Assembly: GCA_944332815.1 (NCBI GenBank)
Contig: CALVKQ010000001.1
Span: 49,697 to 113,696, forward strand
DNA: 64,000 bases
Direction: 5' to 3'
Source of the DNA: an uncultured Clostridia bacterium
GTDB taxonomy: Bacteria; Bacillota; Clostridia; Christensenellales; CAG-917
The position numbers and the translations under genes are program-made. The notes under the pieces are model-generated. The model worked only from the letters and a program-made list of their open reading frames with translations. It was not told where the DNA came from and made no database searches. How positions within the stretch are numbered: position 1 is the stretch's first letter; each line of letters starts with the position of its first letter. Shown piece by piece: positions 1,651-64,000 of this stretch.

Positions 1651-3471
1651 TTATTGCTTGTTCTTGAACTGCTGCTTCATGCGTTCGCTCCCCGACAGTA
1701 TGACCTTGCGGATGCGCAGGTGTTTTGGGGTGACTTCCAGCATCTCGTCGTCGTTGAGGAACTCGAGGGATTCTTCCAGGCTGAACTTCCTCGGGGTGTT
1801 GAGGCGGAGCGCCTCGTCGGAGCCTGCGGCGCGCATATTGGTGACGTGCTTGCGCTTGCAGACGTTGACGCGGATGTCCTCGGCTTTGGGGGACATGCCC
1901 ACCACCATTCCCTCGTAGACCATGGTCTGCGGATCGATGAACAATGTTCCGCGCTCCTGCGCGTTGAAGAGCCCGTAGGTCGCCGCCTCGCCCGTTTCGA
2001 ACGCGACGAGGGAACCCGTGAATCTGCGCTGTATGGGTCCTTTGTAAGGCGCGTAACCCTCAAAGAGCTGGTTCATGACGCCCTCCCCTTTGGTGTCGGT
2101 GAGGAACTCGTTCTTGAACCCGAACAGCCCTCTGGACGGCACGACGAATTCCATCCTTATGCGGCTGCCTTTTGGCTCCATGGTGACGAGCTCGCCTTTA
2201 CGCACGCCCATGCGCTCCATCACGGAGCCCACGCAGTCGGAAGGCACGTCTATGAACAGCCTTTCCATAGGCTCGCACTTCTCGCCGTCGATGGTGCGGA
2301 ATATGACCTGCGGCGTGCCGACGCCGAACTCGTACCCCTCGCGGCGCATGGTTTCGATGAGGATGCTGAGGTGCATCTCCCCCCTGCCGCACACCTTGAA
2401 AGTGTCGGGGCTTTCCGTCTGATACACGCGCAGAGAAACGTCTTTCAGCAACTCGCGGAAGAGCCTGTCGCGCAGCTGCCTGGACGTGACGAACTTGCCC
2501 TCTTTGCCGGCGAACGGGCTGTCGTTGACGGAGAAATTCATCTCTATCGTAGGCTCGCCTATCTTGACGAAGGGGACGGGGTCTATCCTGCTCGGGTCGC
2601 AAAGCGTGTTGCCGATGGTGATATTCTCGATGCCGCTGAAACACACGATATCCCCCACCTTCGCCTCTTCGACGGGAACGCGCTTCAACCCCTCTATCTG
2701 GAAGAGGGTGACCACTTTGCTGCGGTAGGGAGAAAGCCCCGTGTAGTCGCACACCATGACCTCCTCGCCCACTCTGACGTCGCCGCGCTCTATCTTGCCT
2801 ATGCCTATGCGCCCGACATACTCGTTGTAGTCTATCGCGGACACGAGCAGCTGCAACTCGCCGTCGGGGTCGCCCTCCGGAGGCTCGATGTAATTCAGGA
2901 TGGTTTCGAACAACGGTTTGAGGTCGGTGCCGGGGACGTTGTAGTCGGTGGTGGCGGTGGCGTTCTTGCCCGAACAATAGAGAATGGGGCTCATGAGCTG
3001 ATCGTCGTCCGCGCCGAGGTCGAGCAGAAGCTCCAACACCTCGTCGCCCACCTCCGCGAGCCTCGCGTCCGGGCGGTCTATCTTATTTATGACGATGATG
3101 ATCTTGAGCCCGAGTTCCAGCGCCTTTTCCACCACGAACCTGGTCTGCGGCATGGGACCCTCCGCCGCGTCGACGAGCAGCAGTACGCCGCTCACCATTT
3201 TGAGCACGCGCTCCACTTCGCCGGAAAAGTCCGCGTGTCCCGGGGTGTCGATGATGTTTATCTTCACGCCGCCCCAATGCACGGAAGTGTTCTTTGCAAG
3301 TATGGTGATGCCCCTCTCGCGTTCCAGCGCGCCGGAGTCCATGACGCAGGTCTGCACCTGCTGATTGTCGCGGAAAGTCCCCGACTGACGGAGCATCCCG
3401 TCCACCAGCGTAGTCTTGCCGTGGTCGACGTGTGCAATGATGGCTACATTTCTCAAATCTTCTCTGATCAT
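1651..3471 (-). CDS. typA: Translational GTPase TypA/BipA
   Basis: 606 aa. G-domain motifs [17 protein letters not shown] and NKID are present, with an EF-G-like domain layout. Confidence 0.95.
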
Positions 3472-3582
3472 ACGTTTCCTTCGGCGCGCCGCCGCGCCTT
3501 TTTCATGCGGCGTATCCGATGAACACCGCGCAAATCAAGTTTTATTGTAGGTTTTGAGCGTGTGAACCACGCATTATGTCAT

Positions 3583-4740
3583 TCAGTCCATATCGCGCGA
3601 GAGCACGAAGTAGTACTTTTTCTCCTCATTCGCGAACTCTTCCTCAAGCCTCTTTTCTATCTCGGAAAGAGGGGTCTTGTTCTCGAAAGGCATCTCCACG
3701 TCGAAGATGATGTTGGTGTGCGACGCCCCTTTCACCAAACGGAAGTCGTGCAGGGAAAGCCCTCCCCCCATGGCTCGGAGCACTCCGACGCACCTCTCTT
3801 TCAGGGCGAGAGTTTCCTCGTCCTCGTTGTCTATGGGATCGATGTGCAGAGTGAGCCGGATGCCGAGCTCGTCATACACATCACGCTCTATGTTATCCGC
3901 GAGTTCGTGTGCGAACATGATGTCGTCGCGCGCAGGCACCTCAAGGTGCGCCACCGCAAAGTATCTCCCCTCCCCGTAAGAGTGGACGGCGAGGTCGTGC
4001 ACTCCTATGACGCCGACATAGGAGAGTATCTTCTCTTTGAGCGCGTCCACGACCTCCGTCGGAGGGCGCGTCCCGATGAGAGGGTCGGCGGCTTCCAGGA
4101 TATATCTGAAACTGGACACCACTATGAACAGCGAAACCGCAAGCCCGAAGTAAGCGTCCACGTTGACCCCTGTCGCGTCCATGACTATCGCGGCGATGAG
4201 AACTGCGGAAGTTGCGATGACGTCGTTGCGGCTGTCCGCCGCCGCGGCTTTGAGCGCCCCCGACGAGATGCTCTTCGCAAAGTCCAGATATATCGCCATC
4301 TGCACGAGTTTCATGACTATGGACGCCGCGAGCACCACGTACGTCCACACGTCCGTGCTCACCGCCTCGGGGCTTATCATCTTCTCCACGGAGGACTTGC
4401 ACAGCAGCACGCCCACAATGAGGATTATGACCGCCACCACGAGCGCGCCTATGTACTCGTAACGCGCGTGCCCGTAAGGATGTTCGCGGTCGGCAGGTCT
4501 TGCCGCAAGTTTGAACCCTGCCACCGTCACCGCGCTGCTGCCTGCGTCCGAGAGGTTGTTCACCGCGTCCGCTATCACCGCCACGCTGCCGCTCACGAAA
4601 CCCACCGCAAGTTTGAGCGCGCAAATGACGGCGTTCGAACATATGCCGAACACCCCGGCAGCCACGCCGTAGCGCGTGCGCACTTCGGGTTTCCCCGTGG
4701 ACTCAAAGTCCTTTATGAGCAGCTTCTTCAACCACTTCAT
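3583..4740 (-). CDS. Cation diffusion facilitator (CDF) family metal efflux transporter
   Basis: Six-TM N-terminal half with a SGSVAVIADAVNNLSDA-type motif, plus a cytoplasmic C-terminal domain. The ATG at 4740 overlaps the upstream stop (TGATG). Confidence 0.85.
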   Translation of the reverse strand: MKWLKKLLIKDFESTGKPEVRTRYGVAAGVFGICSNAVICALKLAVGFVSGSVAVIADAVNNLSDAGSSAVTVAGFKLAARPADREHPYGHARYEYIGALVVAVIILIVGVLLCKSSVEKMISPEAVSTDVWTYVVLAASIVMKLVQMAIYLDFAKSISSGALKAAAADSRNDVIATSAVLIAAIVMDATGVNVDAYFGLAVSLFIVVSSFRYILEAADPLIGTRPPTEVVDALKEKILSYVGVIGVHDLAVHSYGEGRYFAVAHLEVPARDDIMFAHELADNIERDVYDELGIRLTLHIDPIDNEDEETLALKERCVGVLRAMGGGLSLHDFRLVKGASHTNIIFDVEMPFENKTPLSEIEKRLEEEFANEEKKYYFVLSRDMD

Positions 4741-12690: not shown

Positions 12691-12793
12691 GAAACCTTGC
12701 TCTCCTTCATCATCCGACAATTTGTGCTCAATCGTTGGACATCGGGCATAAATATGTTAGAATGACCGTACGGAGAACAAAGATTTCGACGCT

Positions 12794-38044: not shown

Positions 38045-38377
38045 ATGGAATCCCTGCTGGACGAACGCACGACGGAACTCATCCGCGATTATGTTCCGCG
38101 CAACGCCACTCTGCATCTGCTCTCCGAGTTTTTCGGAGCGTGTGCGGACGCGACGCGCGCAAAGATAATCTGCGCCCTCTCCATCTCCGAGATGTGCGTG
38201 GGGGATATCGCGCGCGTGTTAGGGTTGAATCAGACCACCTGCTCCCACCAACTGCGGCTGCTCCGCGCGGCGGATATCGTGACCCAGCGCAGAGAAGGCA
38301 AGATCGTTTACTATTCCCTGAAAAACCGCAAGATCGAGGACGTCATGTACGCCGGCGTAAAATTCCTGGGGCTGTGA
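38045..38377 (+). CDS. ArsR/SmtB family metalloregulator
   Basis: Typical wHTH with ...TRAKIICAL...EMCVGDIA...L.QTTCSHQLRLLR... and YYSL, 110 aa. Confidence 0.85.
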   Translation: MESLLDERTTELIRDYVPRNATLHLLSEFFGACADATRAKIICALSISEMCVGDIARVLGLNQTTCSHQLRLLRAADIVTQRREGKIVYYSLKNRKIEDVMYAGVKFLGL

Positions 38378-38493
38378 CCCCGTACACTCCGCGCACATGT
38401 TCGGAGCGCGGTTGAGGTGTGCAAACAACACTTAAAATTTTAAGAGGCCTGTCCCCCATTAAACCTTACTCCCCCACGCACACTAGTTTAGAG

Positions 38494-38638
38494 TTTTGAA
38501 CAGTTGGGGACGGGCTTATTTTGTTCAATTTTTGAACACTTGGGGACGTGTTTGATTTGTTCAATTTTTGAACACTTGGGGACGTGTTTGATTTGTTCAA
38601 TTTTTGAACAAAATAAGCCCGTCCCCAACTGTTCAAAA
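38494..38638. repeat. Perfect 28-bp inverted repeat enclosing tandem 37-bp repeats
   Basis: 38494-38521 is the exact reverse complement of 38611-38638. Between the arms, TTGTTCAATTTTTGAACACTTGGGGACGTGTTTGA occurs twice in tandem, followed by a third TTGTTCAATTTTTGAACA. Confidence 0.9.
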
Positions 38639-38644
38639 TGAGTA

Positions 38645-39202
38645 ACGTCCCCTGACATGGGAGTATTGTACCCCCTCCTTCCCTTCGGGCTTTCCTCCCC
38701 CACTCGGAATAGAGGACAATCCTCCTAAAATTTAAGTGTTGTTTGCCCCCTTCCTTCGGGTTTCCCCCAAAATCGTTCCCCCTTAAAAGGGAACCCACCA
38801 TTTCGGGGGAAACCTTCGGCGCTCGCGCATGACTGCTTCCGAGGACGGCACCTTTACGGAGCCGCCATGTTATGCCGCTTGCAATGCACCCGCTGCGCGA
38901 AGAGAGTGGCGCATTGCCGGCGCACTATTCGTCTAGCGCTCGGCACTCACACGGTCGCCGCCTGTTGCGGCTCCGCTCCGAATAAGTGCGCGTCGTACAC
39001 GGAGTTGGACGCGCCGCGACTTGCAAACGTGGGCGATGCTCGCCCACGGTGCAAGTTTGGCTGAGCGGCGCGTTATTACGTCTTTGAACAGGGGCAAGTA
39101 AAAATCAAGCACGCTCCGAATAAGTGCACGTCGTGTACGGGGTATTTTTTCCGTCTTCGAATAAGGGGAAGGAAGGGTATAATACTCCCATGTCAGGGAC
39201 GT
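38645..39202. repeat. Mosaic structured non-coding element, copy 1 (paralog of 59297-59790)
   Basis: It shares collinear blocks with the second locus, including a 39-nt identity (38693-38731 = 59383-59421) and a 64-nt block (39010-39073). It is closed by an imperfect 29-nt inverted repeat (38645-38673 / 39175-39202). Confidence 0.7.
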
Positions 39203-39257
39203 ACACCCCATTAAATTTTGCTTCATACCCGTTCTTTGCGTGTTTTAAACAAGCTGT

Positions 39258-39872
39258 TCAGAGTTCGTCGAAAGGGTTTGTGTCTTCCGCGTCTTCGCGC
39301 GCTATTTCTTCCGCGGTCACTTCCGAGGAATGCTTGTCGCGGATGACGCGCGCGAGCAGTTTGCTCATGGTGCGGTAGACATAATTCATCAAAAGGTCGA
39401 TGAGGAGGAGCGCCACCGTGCCGAGGATCGCGATCGCCCAATAATCGAAGTACGCCGCGACGTCCGGGGCGAGCACTTCTATCGCCTGCAAGCCGTAATA
39501 CAGCGCGGCGAGAGCGGCGTTGATGAAAAGGATCTTGACGGGATATGAAACGAACCACTTCACTCCCCTCTCCCACATGACGGCAGAGATGAGAGCCATG
39601 GGTCCGAAGTATATGGCGTAACCCACAACGGTGGTAACGTCGCCCACCAAAAAGCCGAGCCCTGCGGACACGATATACGCGAACACCGCCGAAGCGTAGT
39701 AGCGTTTGGTGACGGGCGCCATCACCGCGACGCCTGCCGCGGCGAACATCGCCACCGTGACGTAGCGCACCACCACGCCCAGCCAGACAAACAAAAGCGC
39801 AAGCGCCGCGGATATCCCGGCAAGCGCAAGCGCATAAGCGGTTTTTCTCGGAGAGAAAACTCTTTTTTTCAT
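39258..39872 (-). CDS. Polytopic membrane protein, function unknown
   Basis: Five or six hydrophobic helices. The ATG overlaps the stop of the upstream J-like gene (ATGA). Confidence 0.65.
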   Translation of the reverse strand: MKKRVFSPRKTAYALALAGISAALALLFVWLGVVVRYVTVAMFAAAGVAVMAPVTKRYYASAVFAYIVSAGLGFLVGDVTTVVGYAIYFGPMALISAVMWERGVKWFVSYPVKILFINAALAALYYGLQAIEVLAPDVAAYFDYWAIAILGTVALLLIDLLMNYVYRTMSKLLARVIRDKHSSEVTAEEIAREDAEDTNPFDEL

Positions 39873-52194: not shown

Positions 52195-52376
52195 ATACCC
52201 TCCTTTTTATCCCCCGCCCGAAGAGTCGTGGCTCTTCCGGTGGGGACACCGATTAGAACCCCAGTCTAAAATCAGAGATTTTCACCCGGGGACCCCGGGA
52301 TATTGGCTCCGATTTGAAATCGAAAATCAGCTCCGGGGAGCGATCTTGTCCTCGCCACGCCTTCGGGCGAAGGGAC

Positions 52377-58319: not shown

Positions 58320-58418
58320 CAGAGTTCGCCGCACCGGGATCCCCCGTATGCAAAAGGACCGAGGCCTTATACCCGGTCCTTTCCTGTTCTCCGACGAACG
58401 TGTGCGGTGTGCCGAAGT

Positions 58419-58868: not shown

Positions 58869-59113
58869 AAATTCACCCCTTGAGTTTGATAAGTTAATTA
58901 TACTCCCCTCCTCTCCCGAGCGCAAGAGTCAGTTCTCGCGTTTTGTCGAAAATGCCCGGGACGTATCCGAGCGCGCTCCGAATAAGTGAACGTGAGGAAA
59001 AAAGTTTAATGGGGGCGTCCCCTGACAAGGCATACTTCCGTCTTCGAATGAGTGTGGAGTGTGTTCAAGCACACACGCTCATGCTTCACGTTATACCGAA
59101 ACAGGAACGCGTT

Positions 59114-59237
59114 GGGACACAACGGGGACGGGGTAAAGCCGGGGTACCCATCTTTGATGGGGCTTGGGGGCGCAAATGTCCAATGAGGGACAAAACGTGT
59201 CCCTAATTGGACATTTTTGCCCCGTCCCCGTTGTCCC
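59114..59237. repeat. Long imperfect hairpin homologous to the 38494-38638 inverted repeat
   Basis: GGGACACAACGGGGACGGGG (59114-59133) pairs with CCCCGTCCCCGTTGTCCC (59220-59237). An inner hairpin is AAATGTCCAAT..GGGACA/TGTCCC..AATTGGACATTT. The GGGGACGGG core is shared with region 1. Confidence 0.75.
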
Positions 59238-59296
59238 GGATAAAGCAAGAACACTCTAACTAGTGCACGTGTGGAATAAAGTTTAATAGGGGCTTG

Positions 59297-59790
59297 CGTC
59301 CCCTGACATGGAAGTATAGCTCCCCCTCCTCCCCGGGGACCCCACAAAATGCATGCATTTTGTGGGGAGCCCCATTCGGGACTCCTCCCCCACTCGGAAT
59401 AGAGGACAATCCTCCTAAAATGCGGAACTCACTTTTTCATAAAGGCGCAGGCGGTGCGCCTTTATGAAAACACCTCTTGAAAAAGTTTGTTTATCGCACT
59501 TACATAATCAAGCGGCGAACAGTGCTCACTGAACGTCGCTCGTGGGGCGAGGAGGGCGACTCGACGCGCACCGAGCCCGTGTCTACTTAATTTTTCGTCT
59601 AGCTTGCGAGGTCGCAGATCCGCGCCGCGACTTGCAAGCGTGGGCGAACATTCGCCCACGGTGCAAGTTTGGCTGAGCGGCGCGTAATTCCGTCTTCGAA
59701 CGAGTATAAGTTGAAATTAAGTACGCTCCGGATAAGTGCACGTGGAATATTAGGGTTTTTCCCCGTCTTCGAATAAGGTTTGGAAAAATA
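59297..59790. repeat. Mosaic structured non-coding element, copy 2 (paralog of 38645-39170)
   Basis: It has the same order and orientation of conserved blocks as copy 1 (59298, 59383-59421, 59594, 59621-59685, 59725-59778). The interior differs and includes a 15-bp hairpin at 59434-59470. Confidence 0.7.
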
Positions 59791-59807
59791 ATTTCAACGC
59801 CCTTGCC

Positions 59808-60233
59808 TTAAACGGCGATATTTGGATGAAGAGCGCGAAAGCCCCACATATCCGGACGCGCGGTGTACTTTTTTTGCCCCAGCTGAAAATCCTCTGATTT
59901 TCACCCGGGGACCCCGATGTACATAAGCGGCCGGAGATGTGGGGCTGACAAAGCTATTCGCCAAATAGCGGCGTTTAACTTGTTAAAGCGCGATATTTTC
60001 GCGTCAGACAAGGAAGAACCGCGTTCCACGGACGCGCGGTGTACTCCTTGTACATAAGCGGTCGGGAACGCGGTTCTGACGCAGTATCACGCAAAATAAC
60101 ACACTTATCTAAACGGCGATATTTGGATGAAATGCGCGAAAGAACCCTGCCGAGAGGCGGAACGTACATTGACGTACGTGAGCATCTACGGCAGGGACTC
60201 TGACAAAGCAGTTCGCCAAATAGCGCCGTTTAA
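59808..60233. repeat. Three tandem long hairpin elements directly after the surface-protein stop codon
   Basis: Units at 59808-59978 and 60110-60233 share basal arms TTAAACGGCGATATTTGG / CCAAATAGCGsCGTTTAA. A middle unit spans about 59985-60090. The last arm overlaps the TAA stop at 60230-60232. Confidence 0.8.
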
Positions 60234-63200
60234 CGGATGCCGATGATGGGAGGCACCCTCCTATTACTCACAGCAGCAGGCGCATCATAGTGCTGCGGCG
60301 CGATGTCCGCGGCTGCCTCTGCCGCTACGACGGGAGCGACGGGAGCGGCGGTGGGAGGCTGAGGCATGATGGAGTCGATGGGCTCGACCTCCACGGGGAT
60401 GGGATCGGGCGCGCGATGCAGTTTGACGAGCACGGCGATGAGGATGGCGATCGCTATGACGAGAACCAACACCGCCGCCGCAAGCGCGATGATCCACCAA
60501 TCAAACGCGGGCGCGGAGCTGTTGACGAACACGAGGTTGCCTATGTAGTTGGTCTTATACTCAATGGTGTTGCCGGTCACGGTGTAGGACTCGGGATCCA
60601 TCTTGACGAGCCTGCCGTCCGCGTTGACGTAGTACACGCTGAAACCGCTTGCCACGCCGTCGGGGATGCGCGCCGTTATCGTGACTTCGTTTGCGAGAGT
60701 CGTGACCGCACCGTTGCGGTTGTTGAGCTGGATGCGCAGTATGCCGCTGACGCCGAGCTCCTCGTCCTCGCCTGCGAAGGACTGCACGTTGCTCTGGACG
60801 ATCTGCCAGTAGCTTTCGCTGCTGTCGACGGTGGTATCGGACAGCTTGTAATCCACCGCAACGGGATCGCCGAAGTCGACGGTGACATAAGTCGTGCCAT
60901 CGGCGACGTAAGCGACCTTGGTTATCTGGACGGTCATCTTGCCGGAGCTGTTGCCGACCGCGACATAGTTGGGGTTGTTCGCCTTGATCTCGTAGTCGTA
61001 GACGCCGGGTCCGGTGACCGAACTCACTATCTTGCCGTTGAAGCGGTAGACGACGGTGAAGTTGCCGACGGACGACCCATCGGACGTCGTGAACTCTATC
61101 TTGTAATTGCCGCTCACGCCTGCGGTCGCATCGTGCACGTCGGAACCGGGCACAACGGTGACCGTGACGGGTTTGGCGCTGACGCGCAGCGCGGTGACGC
61201 GGTTGTCGATGTAGTAGTTCTCCACATACTCGTCGCCTATCATGATCTCGAGTATGTACGCGCCTGCGTTCTTCATAGCCGCGAGGGACTCATCGCCGAA
61301 GACGTAAACGAGTTCCGCATTGGCGAAGAAGCCTTCCACCACTTCGCCGGTGAGCGCGTCGGTCGCCAGGAGGTCGGTGGCAGGAACCAGCCTGTACTCC
61401 GTATTCTCATACGGGAAGACGGAGGACACACCGGGAGCGAGGGTCACGATGACGCTCCTCTGCGCTATCTCGAAGTTGCCGCTTGCGGTGTAAGTGCCGA
61501 CGTAATTGTATTTGTACTTCGAATCCGCCGCGATCTTTCTGGTGACGGTGATGCTCCACGAATAGTAGCCGGACTCCGTGGGCGCCGGGATGACGCTGCC
61601 GGTGATGGCATCCGACCACTCGAAGGTGTACTCATCGAGCGCCGTAAGTCCTTTCAAGACATCCTCCACAGTGAGTGCAACGGGAGAACCGTCGGCGGAG
61701 AGAGTGTACGGACGAGAGCCGTCGACGACGGGCTTGAACACGCTCGTATCCAAAGTGGGAAGCACGATGACGAGCTCGGGAGCGACTTCCGCGCCCGTGG
61801 CATCCACCAGCACCACCTCGTAGTTGGTGAGCGCGTCGGAGTCCATGGTGAGGAGATACTTGCCGCCGTTCAGATTTGCGGTGAGCTCGTAGTCGGTGCC
61901 GACCAACGCCGCGCCTGTGCCGTTCAGCTTATAGGAGTAAGCCGAGCGCAGCGCATTCATGAGCGTGGCAACGTTATCCTTGTCCGCAACGGAGTCAGAG
62001 CTGTACACATTGAAGGTGGGCACGGGCAGAGAGCCGACATAGTATTCGGTTTCAAACGCGCCGTCCGTGCCGTTGCCGGTCGCGACGACCTGCAATTTAG
62101 CGCGCGCTATGACGACGGTGCGTCCGGACTGTGCGGTGACGGTGAAGTTGGTCGCCGTGACGGAGGCTTTCGCTCCGCTGTACGAGCCTGCATCCACCTT
62201 GATGTTCCCGTTCGCGTCGAGGAAAGCGACGCCCGTCGAAGTGACGAGAGTTGCGGTGCCGACTGTGCCGTCGATGCGGACATACGCGCCGTCCGCCGCC
62301 TGCACGAAGGAGCCGTCGTCATTCCTGTTATAGAGTTTTTCCTGCGCAGGCGTGACAGCCGTCGCGTGGGCGAACGCCGCATTCCAGTCGGTGGCGAGGA
62401 TGTAGGCGTACCCTGCCTCGTCCACGATGACGGGTTTTCCGCCGACGGAATAGCTCACGCCGTAATCGAGCGTGCTGCCGTAAGTGCCGGTGATATCGCC
62501 TGCGTCAGCGGAAGTCAGCGCGACGCTCATATCCGCCCTGGTGACGGTGGCTGCACTCGAAACGGTGTAAATGCCGCCGGTGTTGAAGACGTAATTGCTG
62601 TTGCCGGTCGCGGAGTTGATGGCGAAGATGACATCCTGTCTGCCGACGCCGACGCCGCCGAGGGTGACGGTGAAGTCGGCTATGGTGAAGTCATCCGCAA
62701 GCTCGGGCGCGCCGGGCACGACGAGGACGAAGTCGCCGTCGCTGCCGTAGGTGAGCGAAGCGGACAGGTTCACGGTGTCGTCGAACTTCTTGACGAAAGC
62801 GGAACTGTCGAGGATATCCACTCTGAACGCGATCTGTATGGGATCGATCTTACCGGTCGCGGGGAAGTACGCCAATCCGGGGTACTCCTGCGCCACGGTG
62901 AACCCATCGGGAGCCGCGGTGAACGCGCTCTTTTCGGCGAGGTAGACCGTCCTGCCGTTCAGGGTGAACTCGGCGAGGAATTTTGCTCTGACGTCGTCGG
63001 GGATATCGACGGAGGCGTCGTTGCGGCTGTACGCGACGTAATCCGCGACGCCTTCCGCATCTATCTTATAGTTGACGGTGCCGTTCTGCCTGTACAGTTC
63101 GAAGCCGTAGACGGTGCCGTCCTTGGTCGCCGCCGCATCCGCGGAGTCGTAGCCTGCCGCGAGCACTCTGACGCCGTAGCTCTGCTTGACGAACTCATCC

Positions 63201-64000
63201 GCGGTGACGAACCCGGAGAGGGACGCGGTGACTCTGTTCTCGATGACGCCCGAGTACGCTGTGCCGTCATAAGTCTTGCCGGGAAGGGTGAACTCCACTT
63301 GGAGGGTCGCCGGGGTGATATTCGCCCTGAGGCTGCTGCTGCTCGCTCTGAACGTGATGGCGTAGCTGCTTGCGACGTCCTGATTATGCGCAGTCTGTTC
63401 CGCATTGCCCTCCACGGTCTTCGCGACGAGCTTCACGGAGCCGCTCTCGATGCTGACGGAGATATTATTCGCGACGTCGGCGCTGTTGAAGCGCGCGCTG
63501 TACGCAAACTCGAGGCTGTCGATATCCTTTGCGGTGCCGATCTGCACGAAATCGTTTTCGTCATACGCGCCGTTGAAGTCGAGTTTTACGTCGGTGGTGC
63601 CGTCGTAGACCTTGCTTTCGGGCTTGATGCCGGTGATGTCGATGATGATCTCCTTGGGATTGAGCACAGCCTCTTTTGCGAGGAAGAGGTTGGACACGGC
63701 GTACTCGCCTGCCGCCTCGTTTATGGGCGTGTAGGTGACGTCGAAGTCGTAGTTATCCCAATCGAAGTTGCTGCTGACGGCGATCTCGAAGTTGACGAGG
63801 ACGTCGTGATAGTAAACTCCGTTCTCGAAGTTTTCCGTCTGGACGTAGATGAAAGGCTCGTACTTTTCGCCGGTATCTCTGGCGAAGAGGTACACGGGGT
63901 TGCGGATCTCCGCGCTTTCGCCGTCTGCGACGTTATCGATGACGGGCGCGGTGACGGTGGAAGGACCGGCCTGACCGCTGTACATCACGCTGTCGCCCTC
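60230..64000 (-). CDS. Very large surface protein with MBG (YGX-type)-like repeats and a C-terminal TM anchor (5' end outside the window)
   Basis: Recurrent K.YDGT motifs (KVYDGTTDV, KTYDGTAYSG). C-terminal hydrophobic helix WWIIALAAAVLVLVIAIAILIAVLV followed by a Pro/Ala-rich tail. No signal peptide at the apparent start, so the gene continues upstream. Confidence 0.8.
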   Translation of the reverse strand, partial: EGDSVMYSGQAGPSTVTAPVIDNVADGESAEIRNPVYLFARDTGEKYEPFIYVQTENFENGVYYHDVLVNFEIAVSSNFDWDNYDFDVTYTPINEAAGEYAVSNLFLAKEAVLNPKEIIIDITGIKPESKVYDGTTDVKLDFNGAYDENDFVQIGTAKDIDSLEFAYSARFNSADVANNISVSIESGSVKLVAKTVEGNAEQTAHNQDVASSYAITFRASSSSLRANITPATLQVEFTLPGKTYDGTAYSGVIENRVTASLSGFVTADEFVKQSYGVRVLAAGYDSADAAATKDGTVYGFELYRQNGTVNYKIDAEGVADYVAYSRNDASVDIPDDVRAKFLAEFTLNGRTVYLAEKSAFTAAPDGFTVAQEYPGLAYFPATGKIDPIQIAFRVDILDSSAFVKKFDDTVNLSASLTYGSDGDFVLVVPGAPELADDFTIADFTVTLGGVGVGRQDVIFAINSATGNSNYVFNTGGIYTVSSAATVTRADMSVALTSADAGDITGTYGSTLDYGVSYSVGGKPVIVDEAGYAYILATDWNAAFAHATAVTPAQEKLYNRNDDGSFVQAADGAYVRIDGTVGTATLVTSTGVAFLDANGNIKVDAGSYSGAKASVTATNFTVTAQSGRTVVIARAKLQVVATGNGTDGAFETEYYVGSLPVPTFNVYSSDSVADKDNVATLMNALRSAYSYKLNGTGAALVGTDYELTANLNGGKYLLTMDSDALTNYEVVLVDATGAEVAPELVIVLPTLDTSVFKPVVDGSRPYTLSADGSPVALTVEDVLKGLTALDEYTFEWSDAITGSVIPAPTESGYYSWSITVTRKIAADSKYKYNYVGTYTASGNFEIAQRSVIVTLAPGVSSVFPYENTEYRLVPATDLLATDALTGEVVEGFFANAELVYVFGDESLAAMKNAGAYILEIMIGDEYVENYYIDNRVTALRVSAKPVTVTVVPGSDVHDATAGVSGNYKIEFTTSDGSSVGNFTVVYRFNGKIVSSVTGPGVYDYEIKANNPNYVAVGNSSGKMTVQITKVAYVADGTTYVTVDFGDPVAVDYKLSDTTVDSSESYWQIVQSNVQSFAGEDEELGVSGILRIQLNNRNGAVTTLANEVTITARIPDGVASGFSVYYVNADGRLVKMDPESYTVTGNTIEYKTNYIGNLVFVNSSAPAFDWWIIALAAAVLVLVIAIAILIAVLVKLHRAPDPIPVEVEPIDSIMPQPPTAAPVAPVVAAEAAADIAPQHYDAPAAVSNRRVPPIIGIR

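Follow-up and report, generated by a model that had tools for sequence, protein, structure and literature searches.

The repeat array at positions 38494–38638 of the window (the whole 64,000-nt stretch of DNA analyzed here) is very probably one member of a family of dispersed palindromes of the REP/REPIN type, whose cognate enzyme would be a RAYT-like transposase, and an inner arm unit has been duplicated locally in this copy. This reading draws on the dispersal and architecture of the element, the covariation of its stem, its linkage to and co-divergence with the transposase gene, its variation among strains, and its absence from sister species, all of which we document; mobilization of the element by the transposase is proposed by analogy. 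What an earlier note on this DNA had presented as a candidate iteron or operator array would thereby become an explained repeat element.

The element consists of three direct units followed by one inverted unit (alpha-beta-beta-alpha'), which together form a 145-nt hairpin. Unit alpha, the outer left arm (38494–38528, + strand), is the perfect reverse complement over 35 nt of alpha' (38604–38638, − strand), the sole inverted unit, which forms the right arm and is single-copy across strains and at other loci. Within alpha, TTGAACA (38496–38502) and TGTTCAA (38522–38528) form a mini-stem around a loop that contains the core GGGGACGG (38506–38513, + strand). Unit beta-1 (TTTTGAACACTTGGGGACGTGTTTGATTTGTTCAAT; 38530–38565, + strand) belongs to the subtype that occupies the middle of the RAYT-flanking arrays in L037–L039, and beta-2 (38566–38601, + strand) matches it at 36/36 positions and is an additional copy relative to the alpha-beta-alpha' form (RAYT-adjacent arrays, L022). 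In its general form, the unit spans 33–36 nt, with a 7-bp stem (TTGRACA/TGTYCAA) and a 19-nt loop holding GGGGACGG. Tandem units abut directly, without spacers, and no cas gene is present among the flanking genes scanned, so a CRISPR array was rejected.

The 19-mer TTGAACASTTGGGGACGKG occurs three times on the + strand (38496, 38532, and 38568) and once inverted (38618–38636), with no further site in the 64 kb (0.04 expected by chance). The palindrome TGTTCAA-N3-TTGAACA has three sites (38522, 38558, and 38594), and a search of the window allowing two mismatches added one match, at 12725 (0.14 expected by chance). Folded as single-stranded DNA, the array reaches −50.9 kcal/mol (z = −12.3); as RNA, it reaches −87 kcal/mol on the + strand and −76 kcal/mol on the − strand. 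It is the only array of its kind in the window.

The repeat structure described in the earlier note is real and far above chance. As it reported, 38494–38521 is the exact reverse complement of 38611–38638, 89 nt separate these 28-nt arms, two identical tandem units lie between them, and the 19-mer occurs three times directly and once inverted. Several of its coordinates and lengths had to be revised, however: perfect pairing continues past 28 nt to 35 nt, the tandem period is 36 rather than 37 (36/36 identical positions at the former versus 16/37 at the latter), and the second and third direct 19-mers had been placed at 38533 and 38570 instead of 38532 and 38568.

The array lies within an 880-nt ORF-free stretch (38378–39257, locus A) flanked by the convergent 3' ends of an ArsR-family gene (38045–38377, + strand) and a gene encoding a 204-aa protein (− strand), and it starts 117 nt downstream of the arsR stop codon. 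Upstream is uvrC; downstream are genes for a DUF5685 protein and a class I tRNA synthetase (tRNA-synt_1b, Trp/Tyr type), as well as thrC. Locus A is made up, mosaic-like, of short modules, which reappear in both orientations in a second noncoding stretch (58871–60229, locus B). The tRNA/tmRNA scan returned none.

A degenerate 25-nt core of the unit was found in 13 stretches in six Clostridia MAGs, and three of the six contain three or four unlinked stretches each. A metagenome scan with the same core added only four loci, among them the arsR site again, the site known from L013 but with an extra partial arm, and the lone unit in AT-rich sequence; a scan of viral contigs gave 0 matches. Copies are intergenic with the exception of two lone units in AT-rich Clostridium contigs (L017, L021), and most stand without the other modules of the window's mosaic. 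In nearly every copy, a variable number (n) of direct units is followed, across a 3-nt loop, by an inverted unit, the exceptions being the same two lone units and two copies without a clean inverted arm; each complete copy closes with exactly one inverted unit. The element occupies different sites in different MAGs and is missing from the syntenic spacer of sister species. According to the earlier note, a hypervariable repeat number, absence from close relatives, and a motif occurring nowhere else would point to a neutral duplication. The first two were observed, but the motif also occurs at unlinked sites of related genomes, and it is therefore a dispersed element and not a one-off neutral duplication.

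The tandem period differs by locus, with values of 36 in the window, 32 in L019, 27 in L060, and 24–25 in L006, which argues that the units do not form a phased binding array. A second site, compared between L013 and L060, also differs by a partial arm duplication; together with the differing periods, this indicates that the amplifications are local and recurrent. The flanks of 12 copies showed no consistent direct repeat that could represent a target-site duplication, and a DDE-type MITE was rejected on this basis. No pair of empty and filled sites with clean boundaries was found for the element, nor was a target-site signature.

In a related contig (L012), hairpin arrays (2565–2673 and 3507–3614) bracket a 257-aa ORF (2738–3511) with a Y1_Tnp domain (PF01797, E 1.5e-12). 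The best NCBIfam model for this protein is the REP-associated tyrosine transposase NF047646, at 73.7 bits, just short of the curated cutoff of 80, versus 20.1 bits for the IS200 model; in the JGI annotation, several homologs are named RayT. Neither the HUH motif (N59-H60-x-H62) nor the tyrosine motif (Y120-I-H-N-N-P125) varies among 25 homologs. A search of the PDB with a single RAYT sequence found nothing, but the 25-sequence profile placed E. coli TnpA-REP (4ER8) first (E 2e-5), above ISDra2 TnpA, with both the HUH and the YIxNNP motifs aligned. The proteins are ~255–257 aa long and carry a C-terminal helix-turn-helix-like extension. Of the protein-binding DNA elements that the earlier note had suggested in preference to an RNA motif, a transposase site comes closest to these results, as in related genomes the gene for a Y1 transposase of RAYT-like type has the unit on both sides and the unit covaries with the protein, whereas the iteron or operator of its headline is unsupported.

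The genomic position of the transposase gene is conserved. On one side is a gene for a ~3300-aa YDG-domain protein and on the other an AMP-binding or PEPCK gene; of the six lineages examined, four (those at 98, 80, 67, and 47% identity) keep this arrangement, and all contigs read for one protein show one gene context. In keeping its chromosomal position, the gene behaves like a vertically inherited one and not like a hopping IS. A tblastn search of the window detected no RAYT gene within the 64 kb; the end of the window (60230–64000) is the 3' part of the giant YDG gene, so, by synteny with contigs of the same samples, the RAYT gene should be located ~7 kb beyond the right end. A further observation concerns the region between the upstream hairpin and the transposase start (L012, 2674–2737; also upstream of the gene in L037), which holds a strong ribosome-binding site and a promoter of sigma-70-like type that is conserved (TTGACT/TTGACC, 17 nt, TATCAT). 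Just inside the repeat, the transposase thus appears to carry expression signals of its own.

The repeats have diverged together with the protein. Homologs at 98, 80, 67, 56, 47, and 39% identity each have units on both flanks, with stems that include TTGAACA, TTGGACA, TTTACA, CGGACT, TTACA, and ATGTCAA around a constant loop core, GGGGACGG. The arrays flanking the 80%-identity RAYT are alpha-beta-alpha', one beta fewer than in the window. In an alignment of 20 distinct units (A3), the 7-bp stem is 97.1% paired, versus at most 47% in slid controls, a percentage inflated by the picking of the units after stem detection; six of the seven pairs change on both sides and none on one side. The swaps of stem sequence from lineage to lineage are stronger evidence than this percentage. 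All stem changes are from one Watson-Crick pair to another, with no G-U intermediates, and the paired, two-sided changes fit with DNA pairing. A3 was used in place of a crude count of the bare 8-mer core plus mini-stem, which was contaminated by cores of a second hairpin family (type B, discussed below) and by chance matches.

The same observations bear on the possibility of an ordinary, active insertion sequence of the IS200/IS605 type, with the hairpins at its ends and the solo hairpins as its miniature derivatives (palindrome-associated transposable elements) rather than as partners of a domesticated RAYT. In IS200/IS605 elements, a Y1 HUH transposase recognizes subterminal hairpins as single-stranded DNA, and no target-site duplication is made; the lack of a consistent duplication at the copies described here is similar. 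The Y1_Tnp domain, a score below the NCBIfam RAYT cutoff, the low copy number of the unit, the IS-like flanking of the gene by repeats, and the occurrence of many homologs on ~900-nt contigs are all compatible with such an origin. However, an IS would not be expected in the same position with the same neighbors across homologs of 47% to 98% identity, or in a single gene context in all contigs read for one protein. Moreover, the protein scores 74 bits against the RAYT model and 20 against the IS200 model, 4ER8 outranks the IS200/IS605 transposases, and a TnpB-type accessory gene is lacking. A syntenic, apparently single-copy transposase that is nearer to TnpA-REP than to ISDra2 TnpA and is not accompanied by tnpB differs from this family, and we consider an insertion sequence unlikely relative to a REPIN with a cognate RAYT.

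Variation at the arsR site was assessed in ten contigs encoding an identical ArsR protein (L001–L010). The spacer downstream of arsR ranges from 614 to 1290 nt among them. A comparison of repeat number among strains, as the earlier note had advised, gave 0 left-arm units in L005, 1 in L002 and L007, 2 in L001, L003, and L008–L010, ~4 in L004, and ~5 in L006, relative to 3 in the window; all of the comparative sequences were assembled from metagenomes, a process that can collapse or mis-join repeats. The inverted right arm is single in the strains compared, whatever the number of left units, and L005 is without the hairpin. In most strains, TTGGACA/TGTCCAA replaces the TTGAACA/TGTTCAA of the window, with both arms changed. 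In sister species, with ArsR proteins 86, 82, and 75% identical, synteny is intact and the spacer is just 81–170 nt long; it contains an ordinary terminator hairpin, with no unit and no mosaic module. Separately, the downstream genes are replaced in two strains (L007 and L010), the latter of which has an AAA_15/AAA_21 ATPase. The arsR-downstream spacer is suggested to be a hotspot for rearrangement or insertion.

Another potential explanation is a function at the RNA level, in which the array would serve as a stem-loop in the arsR 3' UTR that stabilizes or terminates the mRNA, as in E. coli REPs, with any mobile origin incidental. Such mRNA-stabilizing or -terminating roles have been hypothesized for REPs (PMC3733652). 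As RNA, either strand folds into a very stable structure, and sister species carry a terminator hairpin at the same position between the convergent genes. Nevertheless, the promoter/terminator scan called nothing at the hairpin and there is no T-tract after the stem on either strand, by which an intrinsic terminator was rejected. Rfam, searched at the gathering threshold over the whole window, gave no match, and at E <= 1 the region 38300–39300 gave only matches to miRNA precursors, far below gathering scores, which reflect generic long hairpins and are uninformative. Furthermore, the stem changes without G-U intermediates, and L005 is without the hairpin altogether. As the explanation of the array, a function in RNA is quite unlikely; an RNA-level role is compatible with a REPIN origin and is not an alternative to it.

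The third possibility, close to the headline of the earlier note, is a protein-binding regulatory or replication element (an iteron array, a partition site, or an operator of the adjacent ArsR) in which the units would be functional binding sites. The size of the units would suit a binding site, only 117 nt separate the array from the arsR stop, and its TGAACA/TGTTCA half-sites are reminiscent of ArsR/SmtB-type operators. Yet the array is downstream of arsR, between convergent 3' ends and not at a promoter; TGGACA replaces TGAACA and the number of units varies from 0 to ~5 where ArsR is 100% identical; and the element is missing where ArsR is 75–86% identical and synteny is kept. The unit also recurs at unrelated loci with unrelated neighbors, at periods of 36, 32, 27, and 24–25 nt. 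Cumulative GC skew, a check proposed in the earlier note, is monotonic through locus A, with no origin or terminus switch, and no rep, par, or dnaA gene, nor any other replication or partition gene, is near (the neighbors being uvrC, arsR, DUF5685, and trpS or tyrS). A binding array is accordingly highly improbable. A weak change in the sign of the GC skew near 60 kb coincides with one giant gene. Finally, an integron attC site, dif/Xer, parS, an ECF-sigma promoter, a guanidine-II riboswitch, a CRISPR repeat/anti-repeat, and a Tn7 end were set aside, as the geometry of the motif suits none of them and RAYT-linked dispersal explains the data.

We propose the following model for the REPIN. Two units inverted to each other would form the long hairpin (the REPIN form), and the cognate enzyme would be the apparently single-copy, vertically inherited Y1/HUH tyrosine transposase of RAYT type. 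By analogy with TnpA-REP and the IS200/IS605 transposases, the enzyme may recognize the stem-loop in single-stranded DNA, with GGGGACGG as a possible specificity or cleavage determinant. Through its presumed catalysis and mobilizing activity, RAYT would have placed copies of the element in intergenic regions. At the arsR site, the additional tandem units would be a secondary, local event, in which replication slippage or template switching may add or remove arm-length pieces. Each arm opens with the TTGRACA heptamer, so the array, itself prone to form hairpins, provides short direct repeats at unit spacing, a potential substrate for slippage. The variation in number among strains and the locus-specific periods would then be due to slippage and not to selection for a binding array.

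In some respects, the array resembles the pneumococcal BOX elements and the BIMEs of E. coli, which are modular intergenic repeats in which the number of an inner sub-unit varies between loci and strains (boxB in the former, alternating REPs in BIME-2). Both form long stem-loops and are grouped with further repeat modules in mosaics; BOX has no known cognate transposase. The mosaic clustering at locus A (38378–39257) and locus B is similar in layout, but what varies in number here is the hairpin arm, copied as the sub-unit.

The closest resemblance is to the REP/REPIN-RAYT systems of E. coli (TnpA-REP) and Pseudomonas fluorescens (PMC3116915, PMC3337134, PMC5581495). Shared features include a short extragenic palindromic unit, here an imperfect palindrome of 33 nt, within the 20–40 bp of REPs; inverted doublets that form a hairpin, as well as singlets and higher-order clusters; and an apparently single-copy, syntenic HUH/Y1 transposase gene with its own repeat at its flanks (L012 and homologs at 98–39% identity) and co-divergence of repeat and protein, for which vertical inheritance is indicated by the conservation of neighbors in four of six lineages. 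NF047646 remains the best model for the protein, at a score short of its 80-bit cutoff. There are also differences. The hosts are not Proteobacteria but uncultured Clostridia, with Endomicrobia hosting distant homologs; the arms of the doublet abut, with just a 3-nt loop; the apparent copy number is low, the 3–5 exact-core sites seen per MAG being far fewer than those of classical REPINs; and the protein, at ~255 aa with its C-terminal HTH-like extension, is longer than E. coli TnpA-REP (165 aa). In place of an unpaired GTAG tag beside the stem, the conserved GGGGACGG is within a 12–19-nt loop. Indeed, an unpaired GTAG or CGTC tag at the stem end, a hallmark of REPs (PMC3733652), is absent, and GGGGACGG is the sole conserved motif.

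The CGTC-tagged REP super-family (Di Nocera et al. 2013, PMC3733652) likewise consists of palindromic intergenic repeats found as head-to-head dimers. CGTC is also part of CCGTCCCC, the reverse complement of the core described here, and units are occasionally intragenic (here, L017). In the CGTC-tagged REPs, the unpaired CGTC is at one end of an 8–9-bp stem with a 4–5-nt loop, no dedicated transposase is known, and the survey reports no Firmicutes (PMC3733652). In contrast, the motif described here is in the loop, the stem is 5–7 bp, the loop is 12–19 nt, and there is a dedicated transposase gene flanked by the repeat. As a speculation, the presence of CGTC on the other strand of the core could mean that this RAYT clade points to the missing enzyme type of the "orphan" CGTC REPs.

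To our knowledge, REPIN-RAYT systems have been characterized almost only in Proteobacteria. In the literature searched, we found no prior description of this repeat. One RAYT group extends into Clostridia, and its association with abundant repeats is weak or modest (PMC5581495). A Clostridial RAYT clade can now be paired with its repeat, yielding a testable prediction of the recognition target of the enzyme. The element also accounts for the hypervariability of these intergenic regions and for the breaks they cause in metagenome assemblies, and it offers strain-typing markers for an uncultured gut lineage. Tentatively, it may represent a third, undescribed REP super-family beside the GTAG- and CGTC-tagged ones, defined by GGGGACGG in the loop of a variable stem and partnered by a distinct RAYT clade with a C-terminal HTH that is vertically inherited in Clostridia and reaches Endomicrobia. 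With at least two other hairpin families (types B and C) and an invertible segment, it would build BIME-like mosaics that make intergenic regions of gut Clostridia hypervariable.

The type-B hairpin is located in locus B (59114–59237), where, as the earlier note had observed, a long hairpin keeps the GGGGACGGG core; its arms (59119–59137 and 59216–59234, sharing a GGGGACGGGG core) are 95% complementary and are separated in the window by 78 nt that form a hairpin of their own. In other strains, 0–2 copies occur in the locus-A spacer, in either orientation. Across L001–L004, L007, L010, L013, and L022, the arms follow the pattern GGGACA(N3-4)GGGGACGGGGTAAA and TTTRCCCCGTCCCC(N3-4)TGTCCC, with an interior of 78–124 nt, and the inner hairpins differ in sequence between copies, with complementarity kept. 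With the GGGGACGG core in common, type B may be a long-spacer REPIN of the same super-family.

Locus A also contains 36-nt inverted repeats (CCCTGACATGGGAGTATTGTACCCCCTCCTTCCCTT and its complement; 38650–38685 and 39163–39198) that bracket ~480 nt, the right-hand one of which includes a TATAAT-like box (39177–39182). L001 and L004 differ in the orientation of the ~900-nt segment that the corresponding repeats enclose, with collinear flanks, and in L002 and L005 the inner module is inverted relative to the window. The bracketed segment looks like an inverton.

A third hairpin family, of ~45 nt (GGGGTCCCCGTCGCGAAATC-TCT-GATTTCGGGATGGGGTTTAGTC), is found in strains in the rpiB-queH spacer (58320–58418). 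Among contigs with identical RpiB (L045–L054), it is present in 0 (the window and L045), 1, 2, 3, 4, or ~8 tandem copies, and the empty site of the window is at 58345/58346. Relatives of this family occur in the window at 59877–59910 and 52277–52297, and one is nested in the type-B hairpin of L003 and L004.

Loci A and B have additional segments in common. A 158-nt module (39010–39166 and 59621–59778) is 82% identical between them; where it has the central hairpin ACTTGCAAACGTGGGCGA...TCGCCCACGGTGCAAGT, L009 and L005 have a different but still self-complementary sequence, GCGTTCAAGCGGCGGC...GCCGCCTGTGAACGC, and the flanks around the swapped hairpin (CGCGCCGCG ... TTGGCTGAGCGGCGCG) are conserved. 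A 39-nt stretch (TCCTCCCCCACTCGGAATAGAGGACAATCCTCCTAAAAT), which contains a CCTCC motif, is 100% identical between 38693–38731 and 59383–59421, and is preceded by a short TTCG-looped stem in locus A and by a 38-nt perfect hairpin (59335–59372) in locus B. Direct repeats ~255–300 nt apart are present at 59809–59841 and 60110–60142 (94% identity) and at 59945–59979 and 60200–60234 (91%). These paired repeats indicate a tandem duplication of ~300 nt (59809–60234) just downstream of the giant YDG-domain gene, and pieces like it recur in L011, L013, and L018.

The lone units in AT-rich sequence are an identical 31-nt unit (GGACAATTGGGGACGGGCTTGTTTTGTCC AA) found in L017 (6222–6256) and L021 (4540–4575), as well as in L062, on contigs of ~30% GC. 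In L017, the unit is within the last 20 codons, at the 3' end, of a 1218-aa ORF; in L021, a formate-tetrahydrofolate ligase gene starts 22 nt downstream of it. These lone units suggest either that the unit moves across distantly related Clostridia or that a cognate enzyme is native to those genomes.
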